The notes below the pieces were generated by a model. That model ran no database searches, was not told where the DNA came from, and saw nothing but the letters and a program-made list of their open reading frames with translations. DNA of 60,330 nt from a virus (Duplodnaviria; Caudoviricetes): positions 1-60,330 of IMG/VR virus record IMGVR_UViG_3300025120_000051; one strand, 5' to 3'. A program made the translations under genes and the position numbers. Every line of letters starts with the position of its first letter. Within the stretch, counting starts at the first letter, position 1. Positions 3,392 through 39,631 of this stretch are shown here, piece by piece.

Positions 3392-3645
3392 TCAACTATA
3401 ACTACATCACCATTTTTAATTACATAAAAAACTTTATCGTCAAACTCTATAGAATGACCAGCATGCTTATCATACCAAACAATATCTTCTTTGTTTATAC
3501 CTACAACTTGCTCGCCAATACTTATAACCTTACCTTTTAAGTACCTAATGTCAGTATTCTGCAACTCTGTCATTACAAACCCTGATTTAGATTTAGGTTT
3601 TTCTTTTATTTTATCTACAACTATATAATAATTAACTGCTTGCAT
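3388..3645 (-). CDS. groES: Co-chaperonin GroES
   Basis: 85 aa; mobile loop KSKSGFVM, GKVISIG, DVVIVE; adjacent to groEL. Confidence 0.9.
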   Translation of the reverse strand: MQAVNYYIVVDKIKEKPKSKSGFVMTELQNTDIRYLKGKVISIGEQVVGINKEDIVWYDKHAGHSIEFDDKVFYVIKNGDVVIVE

Positions 3646-5197
3646 TGTTCACTCTTCTATTACTTATTATACAATCTGCAGACACTATAGTCTTTACTAC
3701 ACTCACTGCATGTTTGAGCGCCGTTTTTGTAACCAAAACCGGATCTATTATACCATTTTTAATCATATTTACTTCTTCACCAGTTATAACATCTATACCA
3801 TAACCATCTTTTGAAGGTATATGAGGTGTTATGCCAGCATTATCAAGTATTGTTCTAAACGGTGATATAATAGCTTTACTTAATATCAACTCTCCATCAC
3901 TACCTTCAACTATTGTTGTTGCAGCATTTAGCAGAGCAATCCCACCACCAGGTACGATACCTTCTTGCAAAGCTGCTTTAGTAGCGTATATAGCGTCTTC
4001 TACTCTATCTTTTTTTTCTTTTAACTCAACTTGTGAGTTTGCACCTACTCTAACAATACCTACATTACCTGATAATATAGCTAAACGTTCTTGTAGTTTC
4101 TTTTTCATGAAAGGATCTTTTTGTTTTTCTATAGTTTTTTTAACTATATTTATTCTATCCTTAAATTGTGCTTCTGACTTGTCTACTGTTAGTATTGTGT
4201 TTTTGTTATCTGTAACACACTTAACTGCTTCACCTAAGAAGCTAGTGTCAACAAGATCAAAATCATCACCTAAACTTTCATTTATCAACTTAGCACCTGT
4301 AACAACAGCTAAGTCCTCCATTGTATCTTCTTTTGTTGGTCCAAAACCTGGAGAATCTATTATGTTTAGCTTTATGTTACCTTTTACTTTATTAGCTAAC
4401 AAGGCTGATTTAGGTACTTCTTCGACCTCACCTACTATAAGTAGTGATCTTTTCTTTTTAATAACATGTTCTAGTATAGGTTGTATACTTCTTATGCTTT
4501 GTATTGGCGTCACAGCTAATAGTACATAAGGATTATCTAATTCAGCAACCTCTCTACCTTTGTCAGTTATTAAGTAATTCGATGTTAGTGGACATTTTAA
4601 TTGTACTCCATCTACTACATCAGCATAAGTTTTATCTGTTTGTGACTCTTCTAACAGTACTACACTGTCTTTACCCACTCTATTATATGCTTCAGATATA
4701 ATTTTACCTAAAACCTTATCGTTATTACAACTAATCGTGCTAACGTGTTCTAGCATTTTACCAGATACATCTATCTTTATTTGGTCTAAATAATCATTAA
4801 CTTTACTTAAACCAGCATCAATACCTGCTTTTATATCTCTTATGTTATCTTTACCTTGATATTTTTCAATTTCACTTAACAGCGAGTAAGCAAGGACGGT
4901 TGCCGTAGTGGTACCGTCTCCTGCTTCTTTCACTGTGTTTCTAGCAGCTTCTTTGATAAGTGTCGCGCCTATATTCTCAACCGGATCATATAAGACTACA
5001 GATTCTGCAACTGTAACTCCGTCTTTTGTAATTACCGGTTTTCCGAGGGCATCCTCGTATATTACGCACTTACCAGAAGCGCCAAGGGTAGATTGAACTG
5101 CGTTTGCTAGCTGCTCAACTCCCAACATTATTTTACTCTTAGCATTACTGCCGAAAGTCAAATCTTTTACAATTTCACTTGGTTGATTGTATTCCAT
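3632..5197 (-). CDS. groEL: Chaperonin GroEL
   Basis: ITKDGVTVA, AGDGTTTATVLA, EGIVPGGG and GIIDP motifs. Confidence 0.97.
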   Translation of the reverse strand: MEYNQPSEIVKDLTFGSNAKSKIMLGVEQLANAVQSTLGASGKCVIYEDALGKPVITKDGVTVAESVVLYDPVENIGATLIKEAARNTVKEAGDGTTTATVLAYSLLSEIEKYQGKDNIRDIKAGIDAGLSKVNDYLDQIKIDVSGKMLEHVSTISCNNDKVLGKIISEAYNRVGKDSVVLLEESQTDKTYADVVDGVQLKCPLTSNYLITDKGREVAELDNPYVLLAVTPIQSIRSIQPILEHVIKKKRSLLIVGEVEEVPKSALLANKVKGNIKLNIIDSPGFGPTKEDTMEDLAVVTGAKLINESLGDDFDLVDTSFLGEAVKCVTDNKNTILTVDKSEAQFKDRINIVKKTIEKQKDPFMKKKLQERLAILSGNVGIVRVGANSQVELKEKKDRVEDAIYATKAALQEGIVPGGGIALLNAATTIVEGSDGELILSKAIISPFRTILDNAGITPHIPSKDGYGIDVITGEEVNMIKNGIIDPVLVTKTALKHAVSVVKTIVSADCIISNRRVNNASS

Positions 5198-5580: not shown

Positions 5581-5814
5581 TTATTCTTTCTTCGTACCGT
5601 GTCCTCTGTTTCCACGGTTCGCTTTTATACTTGTAAATCTCTTGGTTTTGTGATCGTAATCCTTGCCTTTTATGTTTTTACCAGCCTTAATAGCAGCACG
5701 TCTTTTACGTTGGTTTTCAGCTCTCATTGCTTTACGACGAGGACTGTTGGCTACTTTAAGATCTCTTTTCTTTTTAGCTGCTCGAGCCTTAAGACTTAGT
5801 TTTTGTTTAGGCAT
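5581..5814 (-). CDS. Basic protein with degenerate HNH-like tail
   Basis: K/R-rich; KDYDH...ANRG resembles a truncated HNH motif; first gene after the 5833-5860 promoter. Confidence 0.55.
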   Translation of the reverse strand: MPKQKLSLKARAAKKKRDLKVANSPRRKAMRAENQRKRRAAIKAGKNIKGKDYDHKTKRFTSIKANRGNRGHGTKKE

Positions 5815-5832
5815 AATATTTTTCTATATCTA

Positions 5833-5860
5833 TATAATTACATAGTAAAGCGAAGATTTA
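5833..5860 (-). promoter_or_regulatory. Putative middle/late promoter TAAA-N15-GTAATTATA
   Basis: Same motif and spacing at 15290(+), 30759(-), 60012(-), each just upstream of a co-oriented gene block. Confidence 0.65.
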
Positions 5861-5868
5861 ATAAAAGT

Positions 5869-5913
5869 ATGACACAAGCCTGTTACTAAGATATACTTAA
5901 AGGCTATTGTCAC
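5869..5913. repeat. 45-bp imperfect palindromic site, copy 1
   Basis: ATGACA...TGTCAC ends; reverse complement matches 13866-13910 at 34/45 positions without gaps. Confidence 0.8.
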
Positions 5914-6079
5914 AAAAAAATACGTTAGAAATGTTGAGGTTAAGGGTAGCGCCTACTCTTCACCGTAATTACTTCGTAATAAAAACGCAATATGTAAACG
6001 CCACGGGCCCCTTTTTTATGTGAAACACTGTAGAATTTTCACCTTTTACTTTATATTAATATTTATATATATATAATAG

Positions 6080-6111
6080 TACTATATAAATACGACTATA
6101 TGTGGATAATA
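6080..6111 (+). promoter_or_regulatory. Putative early promoter 1 (TAC-N5-AAATACGA-N8-GGATAATA)
   Basis: One of 7 co-oriented copies with invariant spacing. Confidence 0.8.
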
Positions 6112-6210
6112 ATAATATGAGAATAAATACTAATAATAATATAGAAGTTGTGAGAGTGTGCGCTGTACTACTAATACAATTCCAAATGTTAAACAAAGTA
6201 TATACTTTTA

Positions 6211-6242
6211 TACAATTCATTTACGAAGCATAATGGATAATA
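6211..6242 (+). promoter_or_regulatory. Putative early promoter 2
   Basis: TACAATTCATTTACGA-N8-GGATAATA. Confidence 0.75.
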
Positions 6243-6274
6243 ATAATGTAACAAATAATAAATAAATAATAACT

Positions 6275-6502
6275 ATGTCAAATTTAATTTCAAAGAGATT
6301 CGTAATAAGAAAATCTCTAATCGGTAAAAACCAAAACATCACTGTTAACTTCAAAAATGGTAAAACAGTAACTTACAATCACGATAAAGTGTATGAAGTA
6401 ATGAAGTCAAAACTAGAAACTATGAATTGTTTCGTTAAGTACAAATCTTACACTTCTTCAACTTCAATTCCAGTAATTGCAAGAGAATTAGTAAGTGCGT
6501 AA
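6275..6502 (+). CDS. Hypothetical early protein
   Basis: 75-aa ORF with A-rich leader downstream of promoter 2. Confidence 0.75.
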   Translation: MSNLISKRFVIRKSLIGKNQNITVNFKNGKTVTYNHDKVYEVMKSKLETMNCFVKYKSYTSSTSIPVIARELVSA

Positions 6503-6612
6503 GTACTACACAAAGTCGAGTTAGTTCCACTTGTTCCCTCGTATAATCAAATATGAATAAGTAAAAATGGTGACTCACCGAACCAGAATAGTACGCAAAC
6601 TGGTGAGATCAA

Positions 6613-6655
6613 TGTAGTAATGGTTTATGTGAGTTCGATTCTCACACTACAACTA
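6613..6655 (+). ncRNA. tRNA-minihelix-like element
   Basis: TGTAGT/ACTACA acceptor-like stem next to T-arm GTGAG-TTCGATT-CTCAC; 10-nt linker replaces D and anticodon arms. Confidence 0.55.
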
Positions 6656-6744
6656 TGAATTTTATAATAATAATAGCAACAATGATAGTACTACAATTAG
6701 TACACTTGTTCACAGGAATTAAGTCAAGCGACTTTACAAACTAA
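6655..6744 (+). CDS. Small hydrophobic protein, 29 aa
   Basis: MNFIIIIATMIVLQLVHLFTG...; below ORF-track cutoff. Confidence 0.45.
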   Translation: MNFIIIIATMIVLQLVHLFTGIKSSDFTN

Positions 6745-6753
6745 AATAATGAT

Positions 6754-6909
6754 ATGAAGAAAACGATAGAAGAAAAAATAGTAAAAGGTTTAGTAGTGTA
6801 TACTTTGTTAATAATAGCAATATTTACACTCTCATCATGCGGTAGTACTCAATATGGAATCTGCCCAGCGTACAGTAATCACAATACAAATACGACAGTA
6901 AACGGATAA
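6754..6909 (+). CDS. Small lipoprotein, 51 aa
   Basis: MKK... hydrophobic core, lipobox LSS-C, mature part CGSTQYGICPAY... Confidence 0.7.
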   Translation: MKKTIEEKIVKGLVVYTLLIIAIFTLSSCGSTQYGICPAYSNHNTNTTVNG

Positions 6910-6911
6910 TA
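6880..6911 (+). promoter_or_regulatory. Putative early promoter 3
   Basis: CACAATACAAATACGA-N8-GGATAATA. Confidence 0.8.
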
Positions 6912-6992
6912 ATAATATAAATAAATAAATATGTACGAAGCGATAGAACACTGGAAAGAATATATAAAAGAAAAACAATTAAATAATAATAA

Positions 6993-7127
6993 ATGAAAAG
7001 AAAATTTCAACACTTAGCAGTCAACACAATACTAATTGGATTAACAGCGATATTCGCTTTCGGTTTTGTAAACATACTATATCACTTAGTATTTAATAAT
7101 CCTGTAATAACTTACGGCGGATGGTAG
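6993..7127 (+). CDS. Small single-pass membrane protein, 44 aa
   Basis: MKRKFQH followed by a hydrophobic helix; below track cutoff. Confidence 0.55.
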   Translation: MKRKFQHLAVNTILIGLTAIFAFGFVNILYHLVFNNPVITYGGW

Positions 7128-7234
7128 AATTACTAGACAAAATAGCACAAGAAGAATATGGCGAGTTTGGTTTCACTACGTGTACTGACGAGCAACAACT
7201 AGAAATAATAACTAATAATTTAATAAATAAGTAA
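7121..7234 (+). CDS. Small hypothetical protein, 37 aa (..IAQEEYGEFGFTTCT..)
   Basis: Overlaps preceding stop; protein-like composition. Confidence 0.55.
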   Translation: MVELLDKIAQEEYGEFGFTTCTDEQQLEIITNNLINK

Positions 7235-7366
7235 TATGCAGTATATTTTAACATGCAATAACGGAAAGAAAATAGATATGTCACACTACATACTATTACA
7301 AATGGAAAAGAAAATAACTAGACAAGATGTTCTTGACAGAATAGAGTTCTATAAAAGTACAAACAA

Positions 7367-7579
7367 ATGAGATATAGTAAATCAAATATGAGTTGGGAAC
7401 AAGCATTTAAAGAATGTGCTGACTCAATCAACAAACACGCTTACGAAATGAAAGTAACTAATGAGTTATTTCCAAGAGAAGACGGTACACTATGGGTAAA
7501 CTGGATAGGTTTATCTCAACAAAATAGAGACAAAGTGTATAAACAATGTTACGATACAAATACGAATAAAGCAGGATAA
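7367..7579 (+). CDS. Hypothetical early protein
   Basis: ORF track; dense co-oriented packing. Confidence 0.7.
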   Translation: MRYSKSNMSWEQAFKECADSINKHAYEMKVTNELFPREDGTLWVNWIGLSQQNRDKVYKQCYDTNTNKAG

Positions 7580-7581
7580 TA
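7550..7581 (+). promoter_or_regulatory. Putative early promoter 4
   Basis: TACGATACAAATACGA-N8-GGATAATA. Confidence 0.8.
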
Positions 7582-7586
7582 ATAAT

Positions 7587-7769
7587 ATGAATAAATTAAA
7601 ACTAACAAACTACAGCATCGCAGGTATACCTCAAACAGCTATACTATCTATTAAAGATGAAATAATTACACTAAATTTAACTACAAACAGTAGCTACTGG
7701 GACAAAGAAATAAAGCAATACAGGTCACTATCTACTTTTTACACAATAAATAATAGAATATATGCATAA
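7587..7769 (+). CDS. Hypothetical early protein (possibly leaderless)
   Basis: ATG starts 7 nt after the GATAAT of promoter 4. Confidence 0.65.
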   Translation: MNKLKLTNYSIAGIPQTAILSIKDEIITLNLTTNSSYWDKEIKQYRSLSTFYTINNRIYA

Positions 7770-8013
7770 AAAACAAAAATACTTTCACGAATTATCTTTA
7801 TACGAGATGTTTAAGCAACATGATCACACTTATCAATACGCTGATGATCACTCTTACTGGAAACGAGGTACAGAGCAGAAAAGAATAATCAATGAAAAAA
7901 TAGAACAATCAGGTGGTTGGAATAAAGAAATGGTAGCAGAGTGGAACAAATTCTGTCCAAAACCAATGCAAATGTCAGAAGAATGGCTAGAAAACTACTT
8001 ATTAAAACAATAA
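7762..8013 (+). CDS. Hypothetical early protein (HDxxYxYxDD motif)
   Basis: ORF track; overlaps previous stop. Confidence 0.75.
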   Translation: MHKKQKYFHELSLYEMFKQHDHTYQYADDHSYWKRGTEQKRIINEKIEQSGGWNKEMVAEWNKFCPKPMQMSEEWLENYLLKQ

Positions 8014-8017
8014 ACAA

Positions 8018-8575
8018 ATGAGAACAATATATAAAGGCGATGCTCGCTATGAAAAAATCAAAGAGCAAATGGATCTACTAAGTATTACTGATGTAACTAC
8101 TGAAAGACAAGTGCTAAATGGTACGATAGTTTGGCGATTACCATACAAATCAAGAGGTAATTATGTAGAATATGGTGCTTTCGCAAGTGGATATGTAAGA
8201 AATCAAGGTAATCAGTGTCACTCTAATTGGCAAATCAACAAAAGATATGTTGGTGAACCTGAATATTATCCTGACTATGTATGGTGTGATAAAACAAATC
8301 AAAGTGTAAAAACAGGTAAGTTTAACAGGTTTTACAGTAAGAAATGTGTTACAATACCCATAGAAATTGACAGATTAGAGTATTTGATGAAGTATATTGT
8401 TAAAAATGAGTTTATCAAGCGTGCTAAAATGTTAGAAACAGATTTTGTACCAAAGTGGAAATATGATGACTTAAAAAACTCAGCAAAAGCTCTGGAGCAC
8501 GTTACTAACGCATACCATAGACCACCAAGTGAAGTAAAAGTGATAATAAATGGACATAGATATAACGTAATATGA
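8018..8575 (+). CDS. Hypothetical early protein
   Basis: 185-aa ORF, A-rich leader. Confidence 0.8.
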   Translation: MRTIYKGDARYEKIKEQMDLLSITDVTTERQVLNGTIVWRLPYKSRGNYVEYGAFASGYVRNQGNQCHSNWQINKRYVGEPEYYPDYVWCDKTNQSVKTGKFNRFYSKKCVTIPIEIDRLEYLMKYIVKNEFIKRAKMLETDFVPKWKYDDLKNSAKALEHVTNAYHRPPSEVKVIINGHRYNVI

Positions 8576-8682
8576 GTCCGTGGGAAATAGTAAAACAAGT
8601 AGCGGGTCACATTTATACTGATGAACAGATAGATGAGATGACTTTGGCAGAATGTGAAGAGATATTAACAGCAGAGTATTAA
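8572..8682 (+). CDS. Small acidic protein, 36 aa
   Basis: ATGA overlap with previous gene; MSPWEIVKQVAGHIYTDEQIDEMTLAECEEILTAEY. Confidence 0.55.
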   Translation: MSPWEIVKQVAGHIYTDEQIDEMTLAECEEILTAEY

Positions 8683-8819
8683 TAAAAATTAAAAAAAGTA
8701 ATTAACAAATGAAATTCAACATACAAGATAGAATAGTGCTATATTAACAGCAGAGTATTAATAAAAATTAAAAAAAGTAATTAACAAATGAAATTCAACA
8801 TACAAGATAGAATAGTGCT
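8662..8819. repeat. Perfect 79-bp tandem duplication
   Basis: 8662-8740 is identical to 8741-8819. Confidence 0.95.
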
Positions 8820-9000
8820 AGACGAAATGGTAGACACTTTCAAAACACAGATGATCAAGCATCATCACGAATCAGAGTTAGATGGTAAAAGACCAATAAT
8901 AACTAAAGAGTATTGGCTTCAAATGATAGACGAAGTACAGATTAAAATCGACAACTTCACGACAGTTAAAGCATTAAAACAAAGTAATAAATATAGATAA
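8788..9000 (+). CDS. Hypothetical early protein
   Basis: ORF track. Confidence 0.7.
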   Translation: MKFNIQDRIVLDEMVDTFKTQMIKHHHESELDGKRPIITKEYWLQMIDEVQIKIDNFTTVKALKQSNKYR

Positions 9001-9001
9001 T

Positions 9002-9190
9002 ATGAGTAAAGGTTTTTACATAGTAGAACTTAGAGAATATACAGAGTCAGGCAACTACATAGAGTTTGACGCAGAATTTGAAACTAAAGAAGAGGCAATA
9101 AAGTATGCAAAAGAGAATAAAAACGATCTTTTTGATATACTAGAGTATAAAAACGGTAGAACACACACTCCTAAAAGCATAAGCATATGA
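9002..9190 (+). CDS. Hypothetical early protein (FETKEEAIKYA motif)
   Basis: ORF track; abuts neighbours. Confidence 0.7.
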   Translation: MSKGFYIVELREYTESGNYIEFDAEFETKEEAIKYAKENKNDLFDILEYKNGRTHTPKSISI

Positions 9191-9540
9191 GCACAGAAGA
9201 ATTAAAAAAAATATACTTAGAACATTATGGTTCTACGTTAGATACAATAGATTACAAAGGTGGATATGATTTTGTAATGAATCAAGAATATACAGCAGAT
9301 GGTCACGATGTGTTTTTATGCAGCGATGGTATATCTCCGGTGAGTATAAGTGAAGACGTATATTATTACGCTCATGATTTAACAGATATACTTAAAAATG
9401 CTATACACAACGGTCAAAAAATATACTGTGGTGAGGAGATATATGACGAGTGCTACATTAAAGACGAATGGAAAGAATGGTGTCTTGAAGATAATTTAGT
9501 TGATTATAATGATAATGACGAGTTAGTTAAGTGTGAATAA
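9187..9540 (+). CDS. Acidic hypothetical protein
   Basis: ATGA overlap; D/E/Y-rich, 117 aa. Confidence 0.75.
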   Translation: MSTEELKKIYLEHYGSTLDTIDYKGGYDFVMNQEYTADGHDVFLCSDGISPVSISEDVYYYAHDLTDILKNAIHNGQKIYCGEEIYDECYIKDEWKEWCLEDNLVDYNDNDELVKCE

Positions 9541-9541
9541 A

Positions 9542-9573
9542 TACAATTCAAATACGATAACAGTCGGATAATA
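9542..9573 (+). promoter_or_regulatory. Putative early promoter 5
   Basis: TACAATTCAAATACGA-N8-GGATAATA; wholly intergenic. Confidence 0.85.
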
Positions 9574-9578
9574 ATAAT

Positions 9579-9791
9579 ATGACAAAATGTAAATGTAATA
9601 ATATAATACCTCCGCAGCGGATAGCACTCGGTTATAAAGTTTGTGTTAACTGTAGCAGTACGGAAGCATATGGCTGTGTTAATATAACATACCATAAAAC
9701 GGGCAATACAATTCAGATATTACCAAAAGCCCAAGCTGCCAGAATACGTAAGCTATCCGCTCGTAGAGGTTATGGCACATGCCTAAGATAA
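9579..9791 (+). CDS. DksA/TraR-type C4 zinc-finger protein
   Basis: CxC..IPPQRIALGYKVCVNC matches the C..IPxxRLxA..CxxC finger pattern. Confidence 0.6.
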   Translation: MTKCKCNNIIPPQRIALGYKVCVNCSSTEAYGCVNITYHKTGNTIQILPKAQAARIRKLSARRGYGTCLR

Positions 9792-9804
9792 TAAGTAAAT
9801 AAAT

Positions 9805-10017
9805 ATGAGTGATTCAATAAAAGCATGGCACGAAATGCAAGAAGAAAATAAAGTATCTATATCCGTAGATAAAGATTTAATACTAGTAAATAAACTACTA
9901 GCGTTGAGTAACGAGCAAAAGCTATTAGATATAGATCAAGCTTTAAAAGAATATGAAGGTAATGTTGTAGATAAATGGCAACTTATCAACAGAATAGAGA
10001 AAATAATGTCGCGTTGA
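9805..10017 (+). CDS. Hypothetical protein
   Basis: ORF track. Confidence 0.7.
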   Translation: MSDSIKAWHEMQEENKVSISVDKDLILVNKLLALSNEQKLLDIDQALKEYEGNVVDKWQLINRIEKIMSR

Positions 10018-10081
10018 GGCGTGACAAACTCCTTCACGGGAATACACGGTTGCGCTCGTGCTGAAAACAAGTGAAGGATTA

Positions 10082-10167
10082 GGGAGTGATAAGGTAAGTA
10101 AAGCGAATAAATAACAGGTTACCGAGTCCAAATGCTTTAAACGGCGGTTCGATTCCGCCCACTTCCA
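10082..10167 (+). ncRNA. Miniature tmRNA-like RNA (tRNA-like domain)
   Basis: Acceptor GGGAGTG/CACTTCC with G3:U70 and A73; stemless D-loop; P2-like helix TAAAGCG/TGCTTTA; 3-nt AAC linker; T-arm GGCGG-TTCGATT-CCGCC. Confidence 0.7.
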
Positions 10168-10265
10168 CAATAAATGAATCCGAAGAGGTCAGTGTGCTTG
10201 ACACTGAACAAAACAAGCGAACACATGTCAGGCGAGTACTTCACAGAAAAACTAACGATGACTAA

Positions 10266-10386
10266 TAACTAGGTATGGTTAAGCGATTACCGGAGCGTAA
10301 GCTCGATCGTGGTGCGCAGAGCGTAAGCTCGATCGTGGTGCGCAGACTACCGACGGGTATGAGGTTCGATTCCTCACTAGTTACTA
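10266..10386 (+). ncRNA. tRNA-like RNA with non-canonical core
   Basis: TAACTAG/CTAGTTA acceptor-like stem; T-arm TGAGG-TTCGATT-CCTCA; internal GAGC-GTAA-GCTC hairpin; no recognisable anticodon arm. Confidence 0.6.
10293..10344. repeat. Perfect 26-bp tandem duplication
   Basis: GAGCGTAAGCTCGATCGTGGTGCGCA twice. Confidence 0.95.
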
Positions 10387-10404
10387 ACTTTAAATTAAAT
10401 AAAT

Positions 10405-10587
10405 ATGATTAGTAAAAACGAGTTTCAAGCGTACGTAAACGTACAAGAGTCAGGTGTAACAAACATGTTCGATGTAAGGACAGTATCTTCTCTATCTGGT
10501 TTGTCAAAAGCAAAAATAATGGATATAATGAAAAATTATAGCCAGTATCTAGGTACGTACATTTTAAATACGAATGAAGTAGGATAA
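10405..10587 (+). CDS. DUF5049-like small protein
   Basis: VQESGVTNMFDVRTV motif. Confidence 0.6.
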   Translation: MISKNEFQAYVNVQESGVTNMFDVRTVSSLSGLSKAKIMDIMKNYSQYLGTYILNTNEVG

Positions 10588-10589
10588 TA
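10558..10589 (+). promoter_or_regulatory. Putative early promoter 6
   Basis: TACATTTTAAATACGA-N8-GGATAATA. Confidence 0.8.
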
Positions 10590-10608
10590 ATATAAACAAA
10601 TAAATAAT

Positions 10609-10842
10609 ATGTCAAAATTAAAAACCGTCTACGACAATCTATTGCCCGACGTTAAATCAAGCTTGCAGGCTAGTGCTAGAAAGTACAACTCTGCTAAAAG
10701 ACTTAAGTATACTCTTATGTCTAAAATGATGTGGTCAGAGTTGACAATCGATGAGATGAGAGACGTTGTAACTTACGGTAACTTAAACAGTTGGGAATTA
10801 GACTGTTACAGCTTTATGTATGGTGAAAAAATCGTGAAATAA
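10609..10842 (+). CDS. Hypothetical protein
   Basis: ORF track. Confidence 0.75.
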   Translation: MSKLKTVYDNLLPDVKSSLQASARKYNSAKRLKYTLMSKMMWSELTIDEMRDVVTYGNLNSWELDCYSFMYGEKIVK

Positions 10843-11099
10843 TGAAAGCTACAAAACTACCCAAGTGGTTTAAAGGTTCTAAATATGAATCTGGAGACAC
10901 AGTAACAAATCCGTTTAGCGGAGAAAAATATGATTTAACAGGCGAAGAATTAAGTATGTACGATTTTATAATTGGTTGTCAATTAGTAATGGAAAAATTA
11001 CCAAGATCAATATCAGCAACCCACGTTAATGACTTTCAAAAAGGTCTTGACTGGTTCAGAAAAAATAACGCCAAAGCATATATGGTCTTACTAGACTAA
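10842..11099 (+). CDS. Hypothetical protein (C-terminal AYMVLLD)
   Basis: ORF track; 1-nt overlap with previous stop. Confidence 0.8.
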   Translation: MKATKLPKWFKGSKYESGDTVTNPFSGEKYDLTGEELSMYDFIIGCQLVMEKLPRSISATHVNDFQKGLDWFRKNNAKAYMVLLD

Positions 11100-11114
11100 T
11101 TATGCTATACATTT

Positions 11115-11186
11115 TGCGCGGTAGAGCAGCGGTAGCTCGTTGGGTTCATATCCCAAAGGTCGGAGGTTCGAACCCTCCCTGCGCAC
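11115..11186 (+). tRNA. tRNA-Met(CAT), initiator type
   Basis: Full cloverleaf; GGG/CCC at the base of the anticodon stem and A11:U24 are initiator hallmarks; CCA not encoded. Confidence 0.92.
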
Positions 11187-11200
11187 CTAAAATAATAAAT

Positions 11201-11545
11201 ATGAAGAACACAGATTTTGATATCTTAGCAAGCAAGTTAGCCGACTTAGCTAAAGATACTATGAAGAAAAAAGGCCCAGAATACACTAATGAGCACACGG
11301 ATGTGCTAAACAACTTTAAAGCTACGGGTAAAAGACTAAACATCTCACCCATCAAAGTGTGGAGTATATTCATGGACAAACAAATACAAAGTATAATGGC
11401 GCATGTCAATAATCCTAATCTTGATAAAGCTGAAAGTATAGACTCTAGATTTGCAGATGTAATCAATTACTGTTATCTAGGTAATGCTTTGTTTAACGAA
11501 AGAGATTCAGGAGCAATTAAAGAAGTATTCAACGATGTCAACTAG
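11201..11545 (+). CDS. Nucleotide-modification-associated (Nmad1/DUF1599-like) helical protein
   Basis: KKGPEY..DVLNNFK..K..ESIDSRFADVINY pattern; start moved to 11201 because the longer ORF spans the tRNA. Confidence 0.55.
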   Translation: MKNTDFDILASKLADLAKDTMKKKGPEYTNEHTDVLNNFKATGKRLNISPIKVWSIFMDKQIQSIMAHVNNPNLDKAESIDSRFADVINYCYLGNALFNERDSGAIKEVFNDVN

Positions 11546-11891
11546 AGCTCAGGTTAGATTCGCGACACGCGAAGAAGGCGTTTCTTTTAATGAACACCCA
11601 GATAAAATACACGCACAATTCTACGTGCACCATGATGGTTATCCTGAAGGATTAGGCCTGCAAATAGCTTGTTCAATATCAAAAGATTCACCTGTTACAA
11701 GTTTCTATGGTGAAATAGAACACGTACAGGATATGCACGGTGATTTAGATTATATATACTATATATGGTCTAACTATGACAAAGAAACTTGGATAAGTAT
11801 ATTTGAAACTTACGAAAATAAGTGTATATTTGTAGGTAAACCAGATAGGTTAATAGCAAAATACAAACTAAATACGAACGAAGCTGGATAA
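11535..11891 (+). CDS. Phage protein with YxHxDGYP motif
   Basis: MSTRAQV start; YVHHDGYPEGLG. Confidence 0.7.
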   Translation: MSTRAQVRFATREEGVSFNEHPDKIHAQFYVHHDGYPEGLGLQIACSISKDSPVTSFYGEIEHVQDMHGDLDYIYYIWSNYDKETWISIFETYENKCIFVGKPDRLIAKYKLNTNEAG

Positions 11892-30758: not shown

Positions 30759-30786
30759 TATTATTACTTGTTTTAAATCTATTTTA
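30759..30786 (-). promoter_or_regulatory. Putative middle/late promoter TAAA-N15-GTAATAATA
   Basis: Directly upstream of the barrel-to-endolysin operon. Confidence 0.6.
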
Positions 30787-33700
30787 ATTTTTTTTACGCC
30801 TAACATTAACTCTTCGTCTACTTTTTGTTCTAGAGTTCGATTTAACCCTGCGTACTTCTTCTGGGCGCATAGAATCATATAGCTTTTCAAGTTGTTCATC
30901 TGAAAGACCTAGCTCCCATTCACTCCAACCTGACAACAAAGCTGCTTTAGCCCACATTTCGTTATCTTCGTCCATAGCATCTTGAACATTTTTCATCTTC
31001 TTAAGTATTCTATCCACTGGTAGATTAGCTGTAGCTGACAACACTTGAGCTCCAGCCATGTAAGCTGGATTGTCTAAACCAAATCCACCTTCTTTCATTT
31101 CATCTAAATCGTAATCTAAAGATCTAAACGCGGATCTTACTTTAGTAACTTTAGATGATATAGGTGGCGCAAAGTCTAACGTTTCCCAAGCGGCATTTTC
31201 GTACTTTGGATTACCTTTAGAATGTTCTTGTGATAACTTAAATAAAACGTTTTTAACTGTAGACACCGCAGCACCGCCAATTCCAAGCCCCCTTAATTGA
31301 GAATCAAGCATACCGTTTATCATATTTGATGATTTATCAATAATCTGTTGTTGATCATCAGGGTCTTCGTCAAACCCAATAGCAAACATTGCTTGTTGTA
31401 AAGTGTTAAATATAAGGTTTTGCACAAAGCCATAGTATATTATTTTAGATAAATTACTTTTTGCATCTCCTCTCCCGTTAGCTAAATCTTGTATTGCTCT
31501 TTTTTGTAATCTAGTATACTGCATTGGTGTGTTAGCAAAAGCTAAAACAACTCTACCTAAACCAGAGGCTTGTTGCGCTGATATTCTATCAGGTCTACTA
31601 GACTGTTGAGACTCTTCGGTTATTTCTCTAAAATCTCTAAAAGCTTTTTCTTTAGCTTTAACCTCTGACAAACCTTCTTTTAAGTAGCTATTTATTCTGT
31701 TTCTATAAAAAGAAGCACCACCACTAGATATTGCAAAACTATCAGCGCCTCTTGTCATTACAAAACCTTTGTTAAGTAAATAAGATATAGCTCCTTTAAC
31801 ACCACCTCTACTAGACATGTCTGCTATTTCTGATTCGTTAATATTTATCTTTAAACCATCACGCCTTTGCACTAAGTAATCTGAATTAAACAACTCTTTG
31901 AAATCTTTCCAATATTGTTTTTGATTACCAAAAGCTTTAGCTGCTGCTAAAGGGTTGTTATCTTTGAAGTTTACGTAGTTTATAGCTGATATAGTTTGTA
32001 GTACGGCTGATCTAGAGTTTAAGAACATAATAGCACCAACAGAGTTGTTTGTCCAGTCTAACACTTCGTTTTCTAGTCTTTGGAATACTCCACCTAGCTT
32101 TTTTCTGTTAGAACCACTTTCCATTCTTTGTAGTATATTTTCTAAGGCTTTTCTAGCATTACCACCATATGCTGCTTCATACTTATTTAGGTTTGCTTCA
32201 GAAAAAATTTCATTTTTATTTTCAATCCACTGTTGAAGATGTTTTTTTCTTTTAGTTGTATTAATACCTTCTATCATATCAGTAGTAATAGTTCCGGCTA
32301 ACCAACCAACTCCAGGTTTAGTGTAAGCATCTCCTTTGTGAATAAGCATTAATCTATCAGCAAAGTCTTTTAAATCTTTGTTTGATTTAACAAATCCATC
32401 TATTTGTTTTAAATCTCTTTTAGATATACCAGGTATTTCCATTTTTTGCTTATTCCAAATATAAACTCTTAAAGCTTGTTCTTTTGTATAACCAGCAGCT
32501 GCACCTTCTTTTAACTTATCTCTCAAGCCTTTTGGTACAGATTTGATTTCTTTTTTTAAAGCATGAAAATCTTTCATTAACTGATGCCTTTCTTTAGTTA
32601 TTGCATTTTCACCTCTAGCGTATGGATCTAGTAAGTTTGTTTTGTACCATGCCATTTGAGCATCTCCGGTTTTACCCTTACCTAAAGTAGGGTAAATTAA
32701 GCCCACAAAGTCTTCAGCAGTTGGTGGGATCCAAAATTTAAACTTACCCTTAGTAGCGCCTGCTACCTCACCTTTTGCTTTGCTATACACTTTCTCAGCT
32801 CCAATACCAGTTTTGTTTTCTAAAACATTATTAAACTCTTTACCAAGATCTCTACTCATTAAAGCTTGTTGAACTTCAGATTTAACATCTAGGTTTTGTA
32901 AAATATCTTTAACAGCTTTAACATTTTTAATTGCATCATCAGCAAAGTAAAAATCATTATAACCCTCTATATATTTATCTTTAACCCAATCAGCCTTCGC
33001 TTTTGCTGCTCCGTTCTCAAGTCCAGTTATATTTTCTATAGGAATTTCTAATCCAACACCTTTTAAAAATTTGTTAATAGCTATAGCGGATGCTTGAGGT
33101 CTAGCTGTTAATACAAATATATTCTTATTCCCAAACTTACCTTCTCTTTTGACAGCTAAATCAAACAAAGGCCCTTTCTTACCATCAATAACCTTGTTAA
33201 ATTCTGAAAAATCATACTTAGCACCTTGCTTTGTTAGCTTAGCATCTTGTTTAGCAAACTCTGTTGCGTTTATTTTAAACTTATTACCATTAGGCATGGT
33301 AACAATTATTTGACTATTAGTTCTAGCTAAAGTGTCATCAAAATCAAAAATACTTATACCTCTTTTTTCTTTTTTTCTGTTTCTACCTTCTTGCAGTATC
33401 TTATCAAGCCTGTTTGCATCTACTATTTTTTCTAAGTTTTTAGCCTGTTGCTTGTATTCAGAAGACATTATCTCTTGATATAACGTCTTTTTAAATTTAC
33501 TACTAACACTATATATGTTTTTAGCTAGCTCTAGGTTTTGCCCAAATCTAAATATATCAGCATTACTAGTTCTAGCGTCTATTGTTTCTCCTTTTGAGTT
33601 TTTGATAAAGTCTATCATATTAAATTCAGCTAATCTTCCATAAACACCTCTGTATTTACTCAAGCTTTTACCACCTTCAACACCCCACATGTTTTCAGCA

Positions 33701-36700
33701 ATTAATAATGCAGTTTTTGATAAAGTCTATCATATTGAACTCAGCTAATCTTCCATAAACACCTCTGTATTTACTTAAGCTTTTACCACCTTCAACACCC
33801 CACATATTTTCAGCAATTAATAATGCTGACTCTAAACTTTGCTCACTACTTGATTTTAAGTGCTCGTACTTAGAGTATTTTTTAAATACATGTGTTTCAG
33901 CTTCATTTTTAAAGTTTTTACTTTTAAACTTTGTGAAACCACCAATAGCGTTATTATAGCCACCAGCTTTTACAAGCTGTTTAACTTCTTTTTTAATATT
34001 AGGGTTATTAAAATAACCTTGTTTTGGAATCCAAAAATAACTTCCTGGAGATAAGTTTCTTTCACCTTTGGTTCCTTGTTGTGAGTTTTCTTTCTTTAAC
34101 TTAAATACATGGCCTAATCTATTATCTTTAATTTTTTGCGTTGAACCACTATGAACCCAATGCTCTAACGTCCTGTTAAACGCATCGTAAAAAACATCTA
34201 ATTGCTTTGCACCTGGGTTTTCTTTGTAATATTCAGCAAGTTGTTCTCTACCTTTTTTACCACCTACTGCAGCTGCTTTTTTCCAAGCAGTAAAGTTGCT
34301 AGCGTTGTAAGCTCCTTTTATTGACTTCCAGTCTATCGACTCTACTAGTTCAATAATTTCTTTTGGTAAAGGGTTTTCACCTTTAACAGATGTAGAAGGT
34401 TTTGTTAAAGCTTCTTTGAGTGAGTTTATTTCTTTAGTTAAAGAAGCAGCATTACCTTTGCCTAAAGTTTTGTTGTGTAAACCAACAAGATCCATCATTA
34501 ACGCCATATTACCGTCAATTTTATTCTGTGTAATAGCTGGCCATAAATCAAATATAGTTTTAGAATTTTTAATATAATTTCTTCTTAAACCTTCACTTTC
34601 TTTAGATTGAAATTCTTTAGGACCCATGTTAGCGTACTCATGGTTAGTCATAACATCTGAAAATTCAGAACCTTTAACGCCAGAAACAAACCTAGTTTGA
34701 GCATCAGCTCCAGCTAAAGCTTTATTAGCTATAGATAAGTCTAATAAATCTTTAATTCTATCATATGCTTGTTCGCCATATTTTGCAATAAAAGCTTTTG
34801 GGTTTCTCTCATGTAATCCCATCGCTGCTAATTGTTCAGCTTTCTGTATTTTATTAGTACCGAAAGCTTTGCCAAGATCATTAGAATTTAGTAATTCAGA
34901 CTTACCACCAGCAATTTGGTTGTACAAAGCATCTCTAGCTGATTGATCTCTTAATTCAGGGTTAACAGTTTCGTTACCTGGTTTTTCTAAATAATTTCTA
35001 ACAACTTGATTTGTTATAGCTCTACCTGTTTCAGATATTAAAGCATCTATAGCTCTTATCTGTTTACTTTGAGCTTTTATTTTAGTTTGTTTAAAATCAA
35101 CCTTACCTTCTGGTGTTAAAAATATTCCTAGCTTTTCTAAAAACTGTGTTTTATTTAAGTTTTTTATTTTATTTTGAACTGGTAACCCTGCGGTTTTACC
35201 TGTCTTACTTGACGATGCTTCTGCTGCTACACCTTTTCTACTAGCCGCATTATAAAGCAAACCGTTTAATAACGAAGGTTCTATCATTGTAGATAAACCC
35301 TCTATTTTAGATTTACCTGTTTTTAACATAGCGCCGTGAGGCAATAAGTCATACAATGTTTTCCAGTTTTCAGCTATGTATTCTGATTTTTGTTTTGAGT
35401 TTTTACTAGACTCTCCTTTAACTACATCAGTTCTACCTCCAAACATCTCCATTGTTATATCTGGCTTTAAATCTAATAAGTCTCTATAGTTATATTTTTC
35501 TATGTTTTCAATATCAATCTTACTTTCTATAGATTCAACGTGCTTATCTGTTAGTTTTAAACTTTCTTTTAAGTTTATTAAGCCAGCCTCAGCTTGTCTT
35601 GGCCCAACACTTCCACCAGATGAAACACCACCTTCAAGTTGTAAGAAACTACCATCCGCGTCTATGCTAACAGTTTGTATTTCTCTTCCTTGAGTAAACC
35701 TATCATATATAGCTCCAGATCTTCCACCTCCAAAACCACCACCACCATAAAGACCTTGGATTAAGTATGATCCAAATTCACCTTTGTCAGGAGTGTATGT
35801 TTTAGATAGCTTAACAACTTCTAATAATGTTTCTTGTTTAAAATCAGATCTTTCACCTCCTTTAAATGGATCAAACTTGTTGTTTACAAAGCTTTCTACA
35901 AGTAACATGTTATTAGCTATAAGTCTTCCTTCTAAAGCTAAAGAACCACGGTTGTCTAGATTTTTCTCTTTCTCAAGCTTTCTAGCATCAAATAACTTAT
36001 CAGAAAGATCTTTATTTTTTTGTATTGTTAATTCGTTTTTAACATCTCTAGAATTCAAAGCTTCTCTTTGTGAGTTTTGTTGAATATCTAGTTTTAATAA
36101 ATCAACTTCATTTAATTTATATCTACCATCTTCAACTTTAAGATCTGATAGCGGATTATCTTTAACAAACCTAGTTAGTTTGTTTGAATACCCAACATCT
36201 AAACGTATATCTCTAGTTAATCTCGCTACATACCCTATAAAATCTTCTGCTGTTTTAATTTTCGGTTGGTAACCAGGTATCATTTCTTCAAAGAAACTAG
36301 TGAAATTAGCTTTAACCTCTTTTACAGCACTAGTAGCATATAGTTCGTAATACAAGCTTGGGTTTGAAAAAGCCTCTAACATGTAAGCTAGATATTCTTC
36401 GTTTTTAATTTCACGACCTCTACCACTTTCTAGCAAATCTATTATTTTCTTTAAAGACTCTGGAGCTTTATCATAATCTTTAGTTAATGACTTACCTATT
36501 TGTTTATCATACTTATGAAACACTTCTGCCATGTTTTTCTTAAACTGTAGTGTCATACCTGGGTTTGCTGATTCTATAGCTCGAAAAGCAGCGTGACCAA
36601 TCATCTCGTGTATTTCTTTACCTTTATAACCCTCTTTGTTGTATACTTCTTTATTAAATATTATAAGGTCTTTACCTCCTTTTCCTCCACCTTGTAGAAA

Positions 36701-39631
36701 CTGAGCTGGGCTCATGTTTTTACCACCGTGAAAGTTTTTATTTTTACCATCTACAAATCTAACATCATACCCTTTGTACAAAAACTCACCTTTTTCGTTT
36801 CTACCAACAGCTTCTTGTATTATTTTTTGAAAAGGCTCTGTGTATCTTTTTTTAAAGTTAGATTCAAACTCAGGGTTTTTAGTATCTAATTCATTAGCCA
36901 TTTCCTCTAGTATAACCATTTGAGCAAATGTGTCTTTAGTTTCTTGATAACCATCATATTTAGATTTCTCCTCTTTAGATAGTTCTTCGTATTTTCTGCC
37001 GTTTAAGATTTTATCTTGAGCTTCTTGAAGTTCTAAAGACGCTCTTTGTTTAGCACCAGTTGTCATTAAATCTACACCTAAACCTACTTTACCGTTAGGC
37101 TTAATTCTAAATGCTTTAACATTGTGAGCTCCAACTAAACCGAAAACAAGAGAATTAGTAACAAGTCGTTGTGTTACATCTGACATATCACCATACATGT
37201 CGTTAAACTCTGCTTTAAAATCCTTAACATCCATAAAATCTTCGTAAGCTAACTCAGTGATGCTAGCTAACTCCATAGAAGCAGCACCAATTGGGCCTGC
37301 TTTAACAACTTTGTTGTGTAGGTTGTTTAACCATTTAAACCTTCCAGTAATGTTAAAATACGGTTGAGCTAAAACACCACCTGTGTAAAAAGCAGCACCT
37401 GATGTAGGTTTAAAACCAACACTTTGCATTTTAATTTCTTCCACAGCTACCATACCTAGATGACCTAACATTTTTTTAACTCTACTACCTGATCTTATCA
37501 TTCTACCTAAAGCAGCTGGAATACCAGTTCCTTTTGTTATAGCACCAATAACAGCTAGCTCGGTAAGCATTGGCGCGAAATGACCAACACCTTCTGAAAC
37601 GTTTTCAGACATACTTCTTGCTAGTTGATCTTTTTGGTCATCAGTAAATTGTAATGATTTTACCTCGCCTTTTTCTATTTTATCTTTATTCTGTATATTG
37701 TAATCTGATTGAAACTCTTGAATTTCATCTAATAAAAACCTATTAGTGTTTGTTTTACCAGTTATTTTAGCTAAATTTTCATCAGCTTCTATTTCAGTAT
37801 TACCAAAAAAATGAGTTCCAAAAGCTTTAACTCCAGTATTAAACATACTACCAAAAAAACCTGATTTTTCAAGCTTAGATGGATCTATGTCTAATTCGTG
37901 AAGTTTAAACATTGCTCTTCTAGCTCCTAGATTATCATCTAAAGCAGCGTCGTGAGTTTCTATCCAATCTTTATCTTCTTTACTTAAAGCACCACTAGCT
38001 CTGTTAAGTACTCCAAACCCATCAGCATCTCTACTAGATAATCCATTTTTATGCATTGTTGCATAATCACCTTCCCAAACGTAAGTAAAATCTACTGTGT
38101 CATTCTTTAAATTCTCTTTGAATGAAACGTCTACGCCAGGTAAATTTGAAAGTTTCGACGAAGGGTATGATGTAGTAATATTAATCTTTATATTTTTATC
38201 TTTTGCCTCTTGCTGTAAGTTAAAATACCTTTTGAATAAACCATCATAATGAATATCCATAGCTTCACGATCGCTAAGCATTGCATTACCAGCCTTGTTC
38301 TTTACAAGCGCGATGTTGTTTTCTTGAGAATTTTTAGTTAACTTTGCAGATGCAGCTATTCTGTCAGCAGACGCTTGGGTGTAACCTTGTTTAACATAAT
38401 AATTACTACCAAGCTCTTCATCGTCAAGCGCTATGCCTTTTATAACGTTTTCTGATGCTTTTATTATTTTCTCCTCTACTTTTATTTGCTCTTTTAAAAC
38501 TTCAACGTCTGCACCTCCAGCGTCTAATCTTGCTTCTAAATCTTTTATTTTATCGTAAGATTTTCTAAGTATTTTTACATTTAAATGTTTTATCTGAGCA
38601 TTTTTATTACCCTCACCTTCTACAACGTTACCTTGGTCATCTCTTTTTATACCTAGCTCTTTATCTATAAAGTTTTTATAATAAGGAGTTTCAAATACTT
38701 TTTTGTCTTTTTGATCAACTTGAGCCTTAACAAAGTTCCAGTATTCTTCTTTTTCTTTAGCTTCAACAAGTGTTGTTTGAAACATTCCTTTAGAAGCTAC
38801 ACTACCGTTTATAAATTTAACAAACTGATCTTTAGTAAGTTTAGTTCCGGTTTTTTCCTTAATTTGCTCATAAAGAGTGTCATTGATTTTTTCTCTATTA
38901 TCACCCATCATTACATCAAGCTTATTAGTATCGTAACTATGAGCTTCACCTATACCGTATTTTGCAGGGTTGTCGTATATTTCTCTTAAGTTGTTTTTGG
39001 TAACGTCTGCCAATTTGTTAACCTCTTCTGCAGTTAATGGAGTTTTTATATTGTTGTTTGTGTAATTAGAAGTAGGAATACCCATACTGCTAGCGCCGTA
39101 CGATGTTCTTGGTTTTGGTGTTGATTTATCTTGAGTTGTTACAGTTGGGTAATCTTGAGGTAATAAGCCTGTTTTTTTAAATGCTTGCTTTTCACCCTCG
39201 GTTGAAGTATTATTTTCTTCTATAAACTTAATAAAACTATCGTATTGAGAATCTTGTTGATCCCTTTCATTTCCGTAATTCCAAAATGATTTTAAAGTAA
39301 ATGTTTCAGACTTTTTGTTAGGACCAGTTACACTTATTCTGTCAAGACCAGGTGTAGACTCCTCAAACTTATAAGGTAAGTCTTTGTATTTCTCCTTTAA
39401 CTTCTCAACAACCTTTCCCTCAGCATCACCACCATCTCTATCTCCAATATCAAAATCATCCATTGATATATGGTTATACGGTGATGGTGCTTCTGTGTTG
39501 TCACTTTCTGTTTTTTCAACAAAGTCAGTTACACCAAAAGCTTCTTTAAACTCTTCTATGCTCATACTTAAGTTAGCAGCTTCTCGTTGAAGGTAACTTA
39601 AATCAACTTGTCGTCCGTTTATTTCAAACAT
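30784..39631 (-). CDS. Giant internal virion (ejection) protein, ~2910 aa once the 115-bp duplication is removed; appears as ORFs 33695-39631 and 30784-33690
   Basis: Both ORFs share MWGVEGG...DFIKN through the duplication; zincin HEMIGH, sigma-2-like segment, HAD DFDDTL, helical C-terminus; follows two other internal-protein-like genes. Confidence 0.75.
33597..33826. repeat. 115-bp tandem duplication with 4 synonymous differences
   Basis: 33597-33711 versus 33712-33826; same peptide encoded; causes a frameshift. Confidence 0.93.

Follow-up and report, generated by a model that had tools for sequence, protein, structure and literature searches.

A Putative Coding-Less tmRNA and Two Further Families of Anticodon-Less tRNA-Like RNAs in a Marine Phage

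Introduction

Transfer-messenger RNA (tmRNA) contains a tRNA-like domain (TLD). According to passages of PMC3968760, this domain is defined by G3:U70 and A73 in the acceptor stem, by a T stem-loop, and by a D-loop reduced to a stemless form, and SmpB binds it at the elbow. Among phages, the ssrA gene of mycobacteriophage DS6A is described as "little more than the TLD" and has no tag reading frame; RNA of this type, when expressed in E. coli, is reported to inhibit tmRNA "whether or not chargeable," perhaps by SmpB titration (passages of PMC4131195 and PMC11915505). DS6A is the sole phage case of a coding-less tmRNA that the passages of PMC11915505 name, beside organellar forms, and the supplementary tables of that paper may list more. 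Here, we analyze a stretch of 60,330 bases from an IMG/VR virus record (IMGVR_UViG_3300025120_000051), referred to in its entirety as the window, whose early region carries a tRNA(CAU) gene and three short T-arm-bearing RNA elements, A, B, and C. We argue from comparison with related viral contigs that element B is probably a tmRNA reduced to its TLD and that A and C belong to separate, related families.

Small non-decoding RNAs that are matured by tRNA enzymes and encoded beside tRNA genes include the species 1 and 2 RNAs of phage T4 and the vtRNAs of gammaherpesvirus 68; they are unrelated to A, B, and C in sequence and host, and their function is likewise unsettled. The t-elements of plant mitochondria consist of an acceptor stem and a T arm and are cut by RNase P and RNase Z; they are not known to form conserved gene families with identity elements. 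Y RNAs carry a T-arm-containing module and a Ro60-binding helix. The abstract of PMC1920247 describes t-elements as tRNA-like, lying next to mRNAs in mitochondrial transcripts and contributing to the formation of 5′ and 3′ ends, and the title and abstract of PMC4201824 describe the bacterial Y RNA YrlA as a noncoding RNA that mimics tRNA and Y RNAs as bound by Ro60. In their predicted folds, the phage elements share the structural prerequisites of t-elements, an acceptor stem and a T arm. Pfam scans of the open reading frames (ORFs) of the window gave no match to Ro60 (TROVE), and an Rfam scan of positions 5800–11800 gave no Y RNA.

Four T-Arm-Bearing RNAs and One Canonical tRNA

A first-pass annotation of the window had named four T-arm RNAs, starting at positions 6613, 10082, 10266, and 11115, only one of them a canonical tRNA. 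Our structural scan required a 5-bp stem, a TTCRANN loop, and an adjacent strand of 6–7 nt pairing with a stretch no more than 260 nt upstream. On the plus strand, it returned T arms with a closing acceptor stem at exactly these four starts. A fifth T-arm-like hairpin on this strand, at 38685, has no acceptor partner, and the minus strand gave a single A/T-rich match at 52907. The window held 5 scan matches compared with 1.54 ± 1.20 in 200 first-order Markov random sequences, three of which reached 5. The scan rule alone is thus loose, and the window is only moderately unusual by it, so the weight of support rests on conservation of the elements in other contigs. ARAGORN called one tRNA, tRNA-Met(CAT) with anticodon CAU, at 11115–11187 on the plus strand, and Rfam at gathering score called the same gene alone (62.4 bits), which bears out the count of one canonical tRNA. 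Neither program called A, B, or C as a tRNA, and all three lack an anticodon arm according to ARAGORN, Rfam, and their folds.

Element B Has Features of a tmRNA tRNA-Like Domain

Element B (10082–10168, plus strand) was delimited by its fold, its match to the Rfam tmRNA family, and covariation. Its 7-bp acceptor stem, GGGAGTG/CACTTCC, includes a G3:U70 pair and is paired in 100% of cells in 19 distinct sequences. In place of a D arm stands a stemless 10-nt linker containing GG, ATAAGGTAAG (RNA form AUAAGGUAAG), followed by a variable helix, AAC, the T arm GGCGG-TTCGATT-CCGCC, and A73-C74. B has no mRNA-like domain, that is, no pseudoknots, resume codon, or tag ORF, and the B elements gave neither a tmRNA nor a tag peptide call when ARAGORN was run in tRNA plus tmRNA mode. 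Because these features fit the TLD definition given in passages of PMC3968760, we assign B, on the strength of its sequence and predicted fold, as a tmRNA tRNA-like domain that retains the alanine identity set but has neither pseudoknots nor a tag reading frame.

At permissive thresholds, the best Rfam family for B of the window was tmRNA (RF00023; 39.6 bits, E = 2e-13), to which it aligned at both model ends while the middle 300 model positions were skipped. tmRNA was also the top family for all eight B variants scored; one of them exceeded the gathering cut-off (52.4 bits, L193), and the other seven scored 19.6–41.8 bits. The score of B of the window lies below this cut-off, which is 47 bits. 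The high-scoring variant lies at 3718–3799 of a 6,959-base viral contig; this TLD-only tmRNA is 82 nt long and has retained the TTCGAC motif of the D-loop.

A search in which the acceptor sequence was left free, combined with model R1, brought together the 19 distinct members of the B family. The pairs G1:C72 and G2:C71 occur in 19 of 19, as does A73-C74 after the element, and G3:U70 occurs in 18, the remaining sequence having A:U. The neighboring pair 4:69 covaries (AU 13, GC 4, CG 2), with a change on both sides in 6. Between GGTAAG and AAC, the helix consists of unrelated sequences across variants, and all four of its modeled pairs show two-sided changes; register shifts hold the share of paired cells here to 68%. 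Sequence conservation in the short viral forms is complete or almost complete over 17 nt at the 5′ end and 29 nt at the 3′ end. The interior of 27–130 nt is nonhomologous, always opening and closing with a stem that abuts GGTAAG and AAC.

The 3′ end ties B to complete tmRNAs. An exact search with its 3′ 26-mer matched 19 stretches of viral contigs, comprising 17 short elements of the B kind, one tRNA-Ala, and one full tmRNA. In a genome collection covering 185,579 species, only 10 contigs of bacterial genomes contain the same 26-mer. Five of them were given to ARAGORN, which called a tmRNA and its tag peptide in each; in the other 5, a GGGRGTG start lies 330–381 nt upstream of the 26-mer. The T arm of B is identical to that of true tmRNAs in the 10 genome contigs. 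The 30 Bacteroidota tmRNAs that we extracted, taken from sampled genomes with Flavobacteriia not set apart, have T arms other than that of B. The full-length viral tmRNA lies at 2143–2528 of a 5-kb viral contig (L005), encodes the tag ANDEQFALAA, and has the same 26-nt 3′ end as B.

Compared with bacterial tmRNA (RF00023), B is alike in its acceptor stem with G3:U70 and A73, its T arm, its stemless D-loop substitute, and the helix that follows, and its 26-nt 3′ end is identical to that of some tmRNAs. It differs in having no pseudoknots, resume codon, or tag ORF, and its D-loop and the junction that is GGAC in the 30 Bacteroidota tmRNAs are not those of that set. The likeness to DS6A ssrA, drawn here by description (passages of PMC4131195 and PMC11915505), is that of a phage gene for a tmRNA reduced to the TLD without a tag frame. 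B differs from DS6A in host phylum and phage lineage, in being a family of 19 distinct sequences with a hypervariable helix, and in adjoining two further anticodon-less families and a tRNA(CAU). Coding-less tmRNAs like B also occur in jakobid mitochondria and in plastids of Mallomonadaceae, where they measure ∼65 bp (passages of PMC11915505); such an RNA is the organelle's only tmRNA, and the mitochondrial form is accompanied by a nucleus-encoded, mitochondrion-targeted SmpB. Phage B, unlike these, would be added to the RNAs of a cell that presumably already contains a complete tmRNA.

Elements A and C Are Anticodon-Less Top Halves

Element A (6613–6653, plus strand), identified by the structural scan, its fold, and model R3, is a 41-nt top half of a tRNA. 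It consists of a 6-bp acceptor, TGTAGT/ACTACA, the linker AATGGTTTAT (RNA form AAUGGUUUAU), and the T arm GTGAG-TTCGATT-CTCAC, followed by A73-C74. In the search for A, a pattern in which only GGT and the T arm were fixed matched at least 119 viral stretches, and R3 gave 94 matches, 70 of them distinct, in 100 sources. All six acceptor pairs show changes on both sides (pair 1 is UA in 38, AU in 16, and GC in 13), and 99.5% of cells are paired; when the partner was shifted by 1–3 columns as a control, pairing fell to 26–62%. A trailer of AC(T/A)A follows the element in 59 of the 70, and the trailers of the tRNA-Met genes compared are alike. R3 gave no matches in 150 sampled Bacteroidota genomes under strict filters and with no positive control, which makes that result uninformative. 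A has no family match in Rfam 15, the only overlap being a chance-level snoRNA on the opposite strand (E = 7.9).

Element C, also on the plus strand, occupies 10267–10384 (scan start 10266) by model R2 and its fold. Its acceptor, AACTAG/CTAGTT, is followed by the linker GTATGG, a variable hairpin region, a short hairpin (TACC-GACG-GGTA), the T arm TGAGG-TTCGATT-CCTCA, and A73-C74. R2 gave 39 matches, 35 of them distinct, in 44 sources. Four of the six acceptor pairs and one pair of the short hairpin (UA 21, CG 11) change on both sides, and the 5′ acceptor strand takes the RNA forms AACUAG, GGAUAG, AACCAG, AGCUAG, AGAUAG, and GGCUAG. C likewise matches no Rfam 15 family. Within its variable region, Tandem Repeats Finder reported a perfect 26-nt tandem duplication on the plus strand at 10293–10346 (2.1 copies, 100%, score 108). 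Each copy forms one GAGC-GTAA-GCTC hairpin, and the relative L025 has a single copy. Direct repeats inside the variable hairpins occur both in the window and in L019, and GNRA-type tetraloops (GAAA, GTAA) cap stems in otherwise unrelated B and C inserts (for example, in L007, L008, L019, L205, and window 10293–10346).

Common to A, B, and C are a linker core TAWGGT/ATGGT, the T loop TTCGATT, an acceptor that ends in A73-C74, and a stemless, GG-containing substitute for the D arm. B and C carry a hypervariable hairpin where the anticodon arm would sit, and a variant of class A (L036) has a hairpin at the position corresponding to that of B. Given this common plan, the similar linkers, and the hairpin of the A variant at the site used by B, the three classes are best regarded, on sequence comparison, as paralogues. 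Covariation together with nearly complete pairing in 70 (A), 19 (B), and 35 (C) distinct sequences shows selection on structure. For the short ORFs that overlap the elements (10174–10272, 10275–10412, and the upstream part of 11102–11545), a protein-coding reading was provisionally set aside, since the inserts in relatives are of arbitrary length and pairing is kept.

A coding-less phage tmRNA was already known from DS6A, and the families A and C appear to be undescribed, literature searches having found no account of them. The suggestion in the first-pass annotation that the combination is new thus holds for A and C, which have neither an Rfam nor a literature match, and fails for B, since a TLD-only phage tmRNA is in print.

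The Elements Are Separate Accessories

The first-pass annotation had proposed an integrated module. We applied the models at E ≤ 0.01 to 50 records, the window among them, each of which matches the 3′ half of A, B, or C exactly and was chosen for that. A was present in 28, C in 23, and B in 21. A and B occurred together in 13, and all three occurred in 3 (the window and two others). All three families thus recur, with strong covariation, in contigs of uncultivated viruses, but an integrated module is not supported, because the families are separate in most related records. Since most records lack the full combination, the four genes are separate accessories and frequent neighbors, not an obligatory system. 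Where the elements co-occur, the usual order is A, 2–3 kb of small ORFs, B and/or C, and tRNA(CAU); in some relatives, they form a tight tandem with spacers of 5–7 nt, such as C, a B-like element, and tRNA-Met separated by 5 nt (L033).

By blastn, none of the three was found in a cultured phage of the collection: among 50,697 phage records, the region and each element matched only tRNA-Met genes, T arms of Streptomyces phage tmRNAs, and one tRNA-Cys. In five cultured or deposited relatives (MW202828, an Elemovirus, Cellulophaga phages phi13:2 and phi38:1, and Tenacibaculum phage Gundel_1), no A, B, or C was found at T-loop pattern matches or in the stretches scanned around some of them; the matches were mostly ordinary tRNA clusters, with a few odd elements. 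T-arm elements with acceptor-like closing stems that ARAGORN did not call lie at 68787–68895 and 73061–73128 of Gundel_1 (MT732474.1), the former with two T-arm hairpins within one acceptor stem, and at 37518–37588 and 38539–38620 of phi38:1 (KC821614.1). These may be odd tRNAs or cultured-phage counterparts of the three families.

Proposed Mechanism and Alternative Explanations

We give about even weight to a reading in which one true tRNA(CAU) and three trans-acting top-half RNAs are products of the early region, with B acting on host trans-translation. On the best reading of the sequences, B would work via alanyl-tRNA synthetase (AlaRS) and SmpB, and A and C would be uncharged relatives or processing signals for RNases P and Z. 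All three elements would be excised by host RNase P and 3′ processing, after which CCA would be added; we infer this tRNA-type maturation because the phage's own tRNA genes have matching 3′ trailers. AlaRS would probably then charge B, which host SmpB and EF-Tu would bind. During early infection, B could have either of two effects: it could titrate SmpB and so block host trans-translation, or it could accept stalled peptides without adding a degradation tag. The evidence fits both outcomes and cannot tell blocking from tag-less rescue. Ribosome rescue without degradation, as proposed in the first-pass annotation, therefore agrees with a tag-less TLD that bears the alanine identity set; it and inhibition of host tmRNA are the two readings in play. 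A and C, which do not have G3:U70, would for that reason remain uncharged, and because their acceptor stems covary freely, they would have no fixed amino acid identity; they might bind the same elbow-recognizing host factors in trans.

Any protein partners would have to be supplied by the host, since SmpB was found in 0 of the 50 related records (the control was positive in 10 of 14 genomes) and since Pfam and PHROGs scans of 78 window ORFs revealed no SmpB, tRNA-processing enzyme, RNA ligase, or integrase.

Several observations weigh against a trans-acting, tmRNA-derived system. B of the window scores below the Rfam gathering cut-off (39.6 compared with 47 bits), and at 29 bits, an end-to-end alignment to the tmRNA model is obtained for an ordinary tRNA from a Bacteroidaceae genome as well. 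All 30 Bacteroidota tmRNAs have a GGxTTCGAC D-loop and GGAC before the T arm; both are missing from B of the window, and SmpB binding is for that reason not assured. G3:U70 is replaced by A3:U70 in L033, one of the 19, and in the weaker, below-threshold L031. Many complete relatives have one class only; in several of them, the stretches taken around the elements hold only A or only C. In the contexts compared, A, B, and C each lie 3–30 nt upstream of an ORF start, and the freely varying acceptor stems of A and C fit a structural cis signal as well as a trans-acting RNA.

The last two points lead to an explanation that we consider possible, if somewhat unlikely: that A, B, and C are cis-acting processing signals, cut by RNase P and RNase Z to give early polycistronic transcripts defined ends, with no role for the excised RNA. 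This agrees with where they lie, immediately before ORF starts or closely packed in tandem with a tRNA (as in L033), as well as with the acceptor of A, which is constrained by pairing alone, and its AC(T/A)A trailer, which resembles those of tRNA-Met genes; plant mitochondrial t-elements (PMC1920247) offer a precedent. Yet cleavage has no need of alanine identity, and 18 of 19 B sequences retain G3:U70 next to pairs that covary. Nor would a cut site call for 26 nt identical to true tmRNA ends, and hypervariable hairpin inserts of 20–130 nt would be superfluous to it. We regard it as quite improbable that the elements are decoys or sponges against host defenses that attack tRNA, a role also put forward in the first-pass annotation. 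Since A, B, and C have no anticodon arm, they do not mimic substrates of anticodon nucleases, which excludes that version and limits the proposal to enzymes that read the acceptor end or elbow. The early-region location, the sporadic accessory distribution, and the quick turnover of the variable hairpins, as in arms-race genes, are what such decoys might show, but Pfam and PHROGs scans recognized no defense or counterdefense gene among the ORFs beside the elements, and the decoy proposal found no support.

That the elements are decaying remnants, either tRNA pseudogenes or an attP-type fragment of host tmRNA, is scarcely credible. Integration at tmRNA genes is common, and prophages contain ssrA fragments (passages of PMC9004378). 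However, B has both acceptor strands, 5′ and 3′. Of the 21 records that bear B, 7 of them at least 90% complete, none contains Phage_integrase (control positive in 14 of 14), and scans of window ORFs likewise gave no integrase. The genome collection contains the 3′ 26-mer in just 10 contigs, and the T arms of the 30 Bacteroidota tmRNAs differ from that of B. Covariation across the three sequence sets indicates selection on structure. The attP or pseudogene reading was accordingly rejected as largely refuted by the full acceptor stem, the lack of an integrase, and the covariation.

If B acts on host trans-translation as we propose, abundant marine phages would carry a whole family of coding-less tmRNAs. 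Their natural variation would map the positions that matter, with G3:U70 kept and the D-loop changed, and it raises the questions of whether phages switch off or short-circuit ribosome rescue and what minimal RNA is accepted by SmpB and AlaRS. For A and C, a role as processing signals is possible, as is one as trans-acting tRNA mimics of a new class. A wider proposal, which we think unlikely, is that marine Flavobacteriia-type podophages share a superfamily of anticodon-less top-half RNAs with at least three paralogous classes, which would use host tRNA maturation as a production line. They would act in trans as scaffolds that present fast-evolving hairpin "cargo" and would serve as sponges for host factors reading the elbow and acceptor end of tRNA or tmRNA, namely SmpB, AlaRS, EF-Tu, and defense enzymes that modify the acceptor end. 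If true, this would give the phages a set of RNA-only tools with which to take over translation quality control and escape tRNA-directed immunity.

The tRNA(CAU) Gene and the Sequences Flanking the Elements

A hallmark of initiator tRNAs is an anticodon stem with three G:C pairs at its foot; they also have A11:U24, and their 1:72 pair is weak or mismatched. The tRNA(CAU) of the window is initiator-like in having GGG:CCC in the anticodon stem, A11:U24, and the weak pair U1:A72. GGG..CCC is kept in 11 of 41 distinct tRNA(CAU) genes of the related loci, and close relatives that share its acceptor and D stems have different anticodon stems. It may be an initiator, an elongator, or a tRNA-Ile2.

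Upstream of A, comparison with relatives revealed a hairpin followed by a conserved A/T-rich stretch (6515–6563, plus strand; stem 6517–6520/6538–6541). Its loop, TTAGTTCCACTTGTT, is conserved, and the A/T-rich stretch ends just before A in TGAATAAGTA (also given as GAATGAGTA). The stem takes the forms CGAG/CTCG, CCAG/CTGG, CTAG/CTAG, and GTCG/CGAC in relatives. This motif is a candidate promoter or RNA leader. A further plus-strand hairpin between it and A (6569–6611), seen in the minimum free energy (MFE) fold of 6560–6660, was present only in the window, L048, and L051 among the contexts compared.

A structured leader precedes B at 10031–10077 on the plus strand, with a CCTTCAC/GTGAAGG stem enclosing GGGAATA, a small hairpin, and CTGAAAACAA. 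This module occurs in five distinct contexts in the loci searched, three upstream of B (window, L012, L013), where both stems show compensatory changes, and two inside the variable region of C (L026, L039). Its core, GGRAAYA-hairpin-YTGAAAACAA, is thus a stem-enclosed leader in one place and an insert of another element elsewhere, which suggests that RNA modules may be shuffled between elements. The spacer between B and C contains a plus-strand hairpin, TCAGTGT-GCTTG-ACACTGA (10173–10219), and the same stretch stands upstream of C in L035; the whole spacer folds no better than shuffles (z = −0.30). The structured spacers of the first-pass annotation are therefore supported in part: compensatory changes are found at 10031–10077 and 6515–6541, whereas the MFE z-scores of single spacers are weak (−0.3 to −0.9).

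A motif of ∼17 nt, ACATAAG(T/C)GAAT(N)GCTAG, occurs in 21 distinct contexts in relatives (for example, L019, L020, L025, L042, and L110), and in 10 of these, B or C follows after 5–10 nt. At least three further groups have the motif at the head of a longer leader that ends at B or C. The motif, which the window lacks, may be a dedicated promoter or processing site. In the window, two short upstream motifs occurred at chance level. A σ70 scan of the window gave 45 sites compared with 35.2 ± 5.1 in shuffles, the likely host group using other promoters, and a terminator scan gave 3 compared with 2.8 expected; both scans were uninformative, the former also on the early promoters that the first-pass annotation had placed upstream of the elements.

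The Phage and Its Likely Host

The window has an estimated completeness of 84%. Pfam and PHROGs identified genes for GroEL, a sigma factor, a primase-helicase, ribonucleotide reductase, an ATP-dependent ligase, Erf with an exonuclease, a portal protein, and the large terminase. The large terminase is 63% identical to that of an uncultured podovirus, 44% identical to those of Flavobacterium Elemovirus phages, and 32–37% identical to those of Cellulophaga and Tenacibaculum podophages. On the basis of the identities to the Elemovirus, Cellulophaga, and Tenacibaculum phages, the host is likely a member of the Flavobacteriaceae. The sequencing runs that contain DNA of this region are labeled marine or seawater metagenome.

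The GroEL-type chaperonin gene lies at 3632–5197 on the minus strand (PHROG 5725, E = 3e-131; Pfam Cpn60_TCP1), and in a related Elemovirus, an annotated GroES adjoins the terminase. The structural module includes two very large ORFs with no Pfam or PHROGs match, both on the minus strand, at 33695–39631 (1978 aa) and 30784–33690 (968 aa). Among the small early ORFs, a 79-bp tandem duplication (8662–8820; 2.0 copies, 100% matches) could be a true duplication or an assembly artifact.

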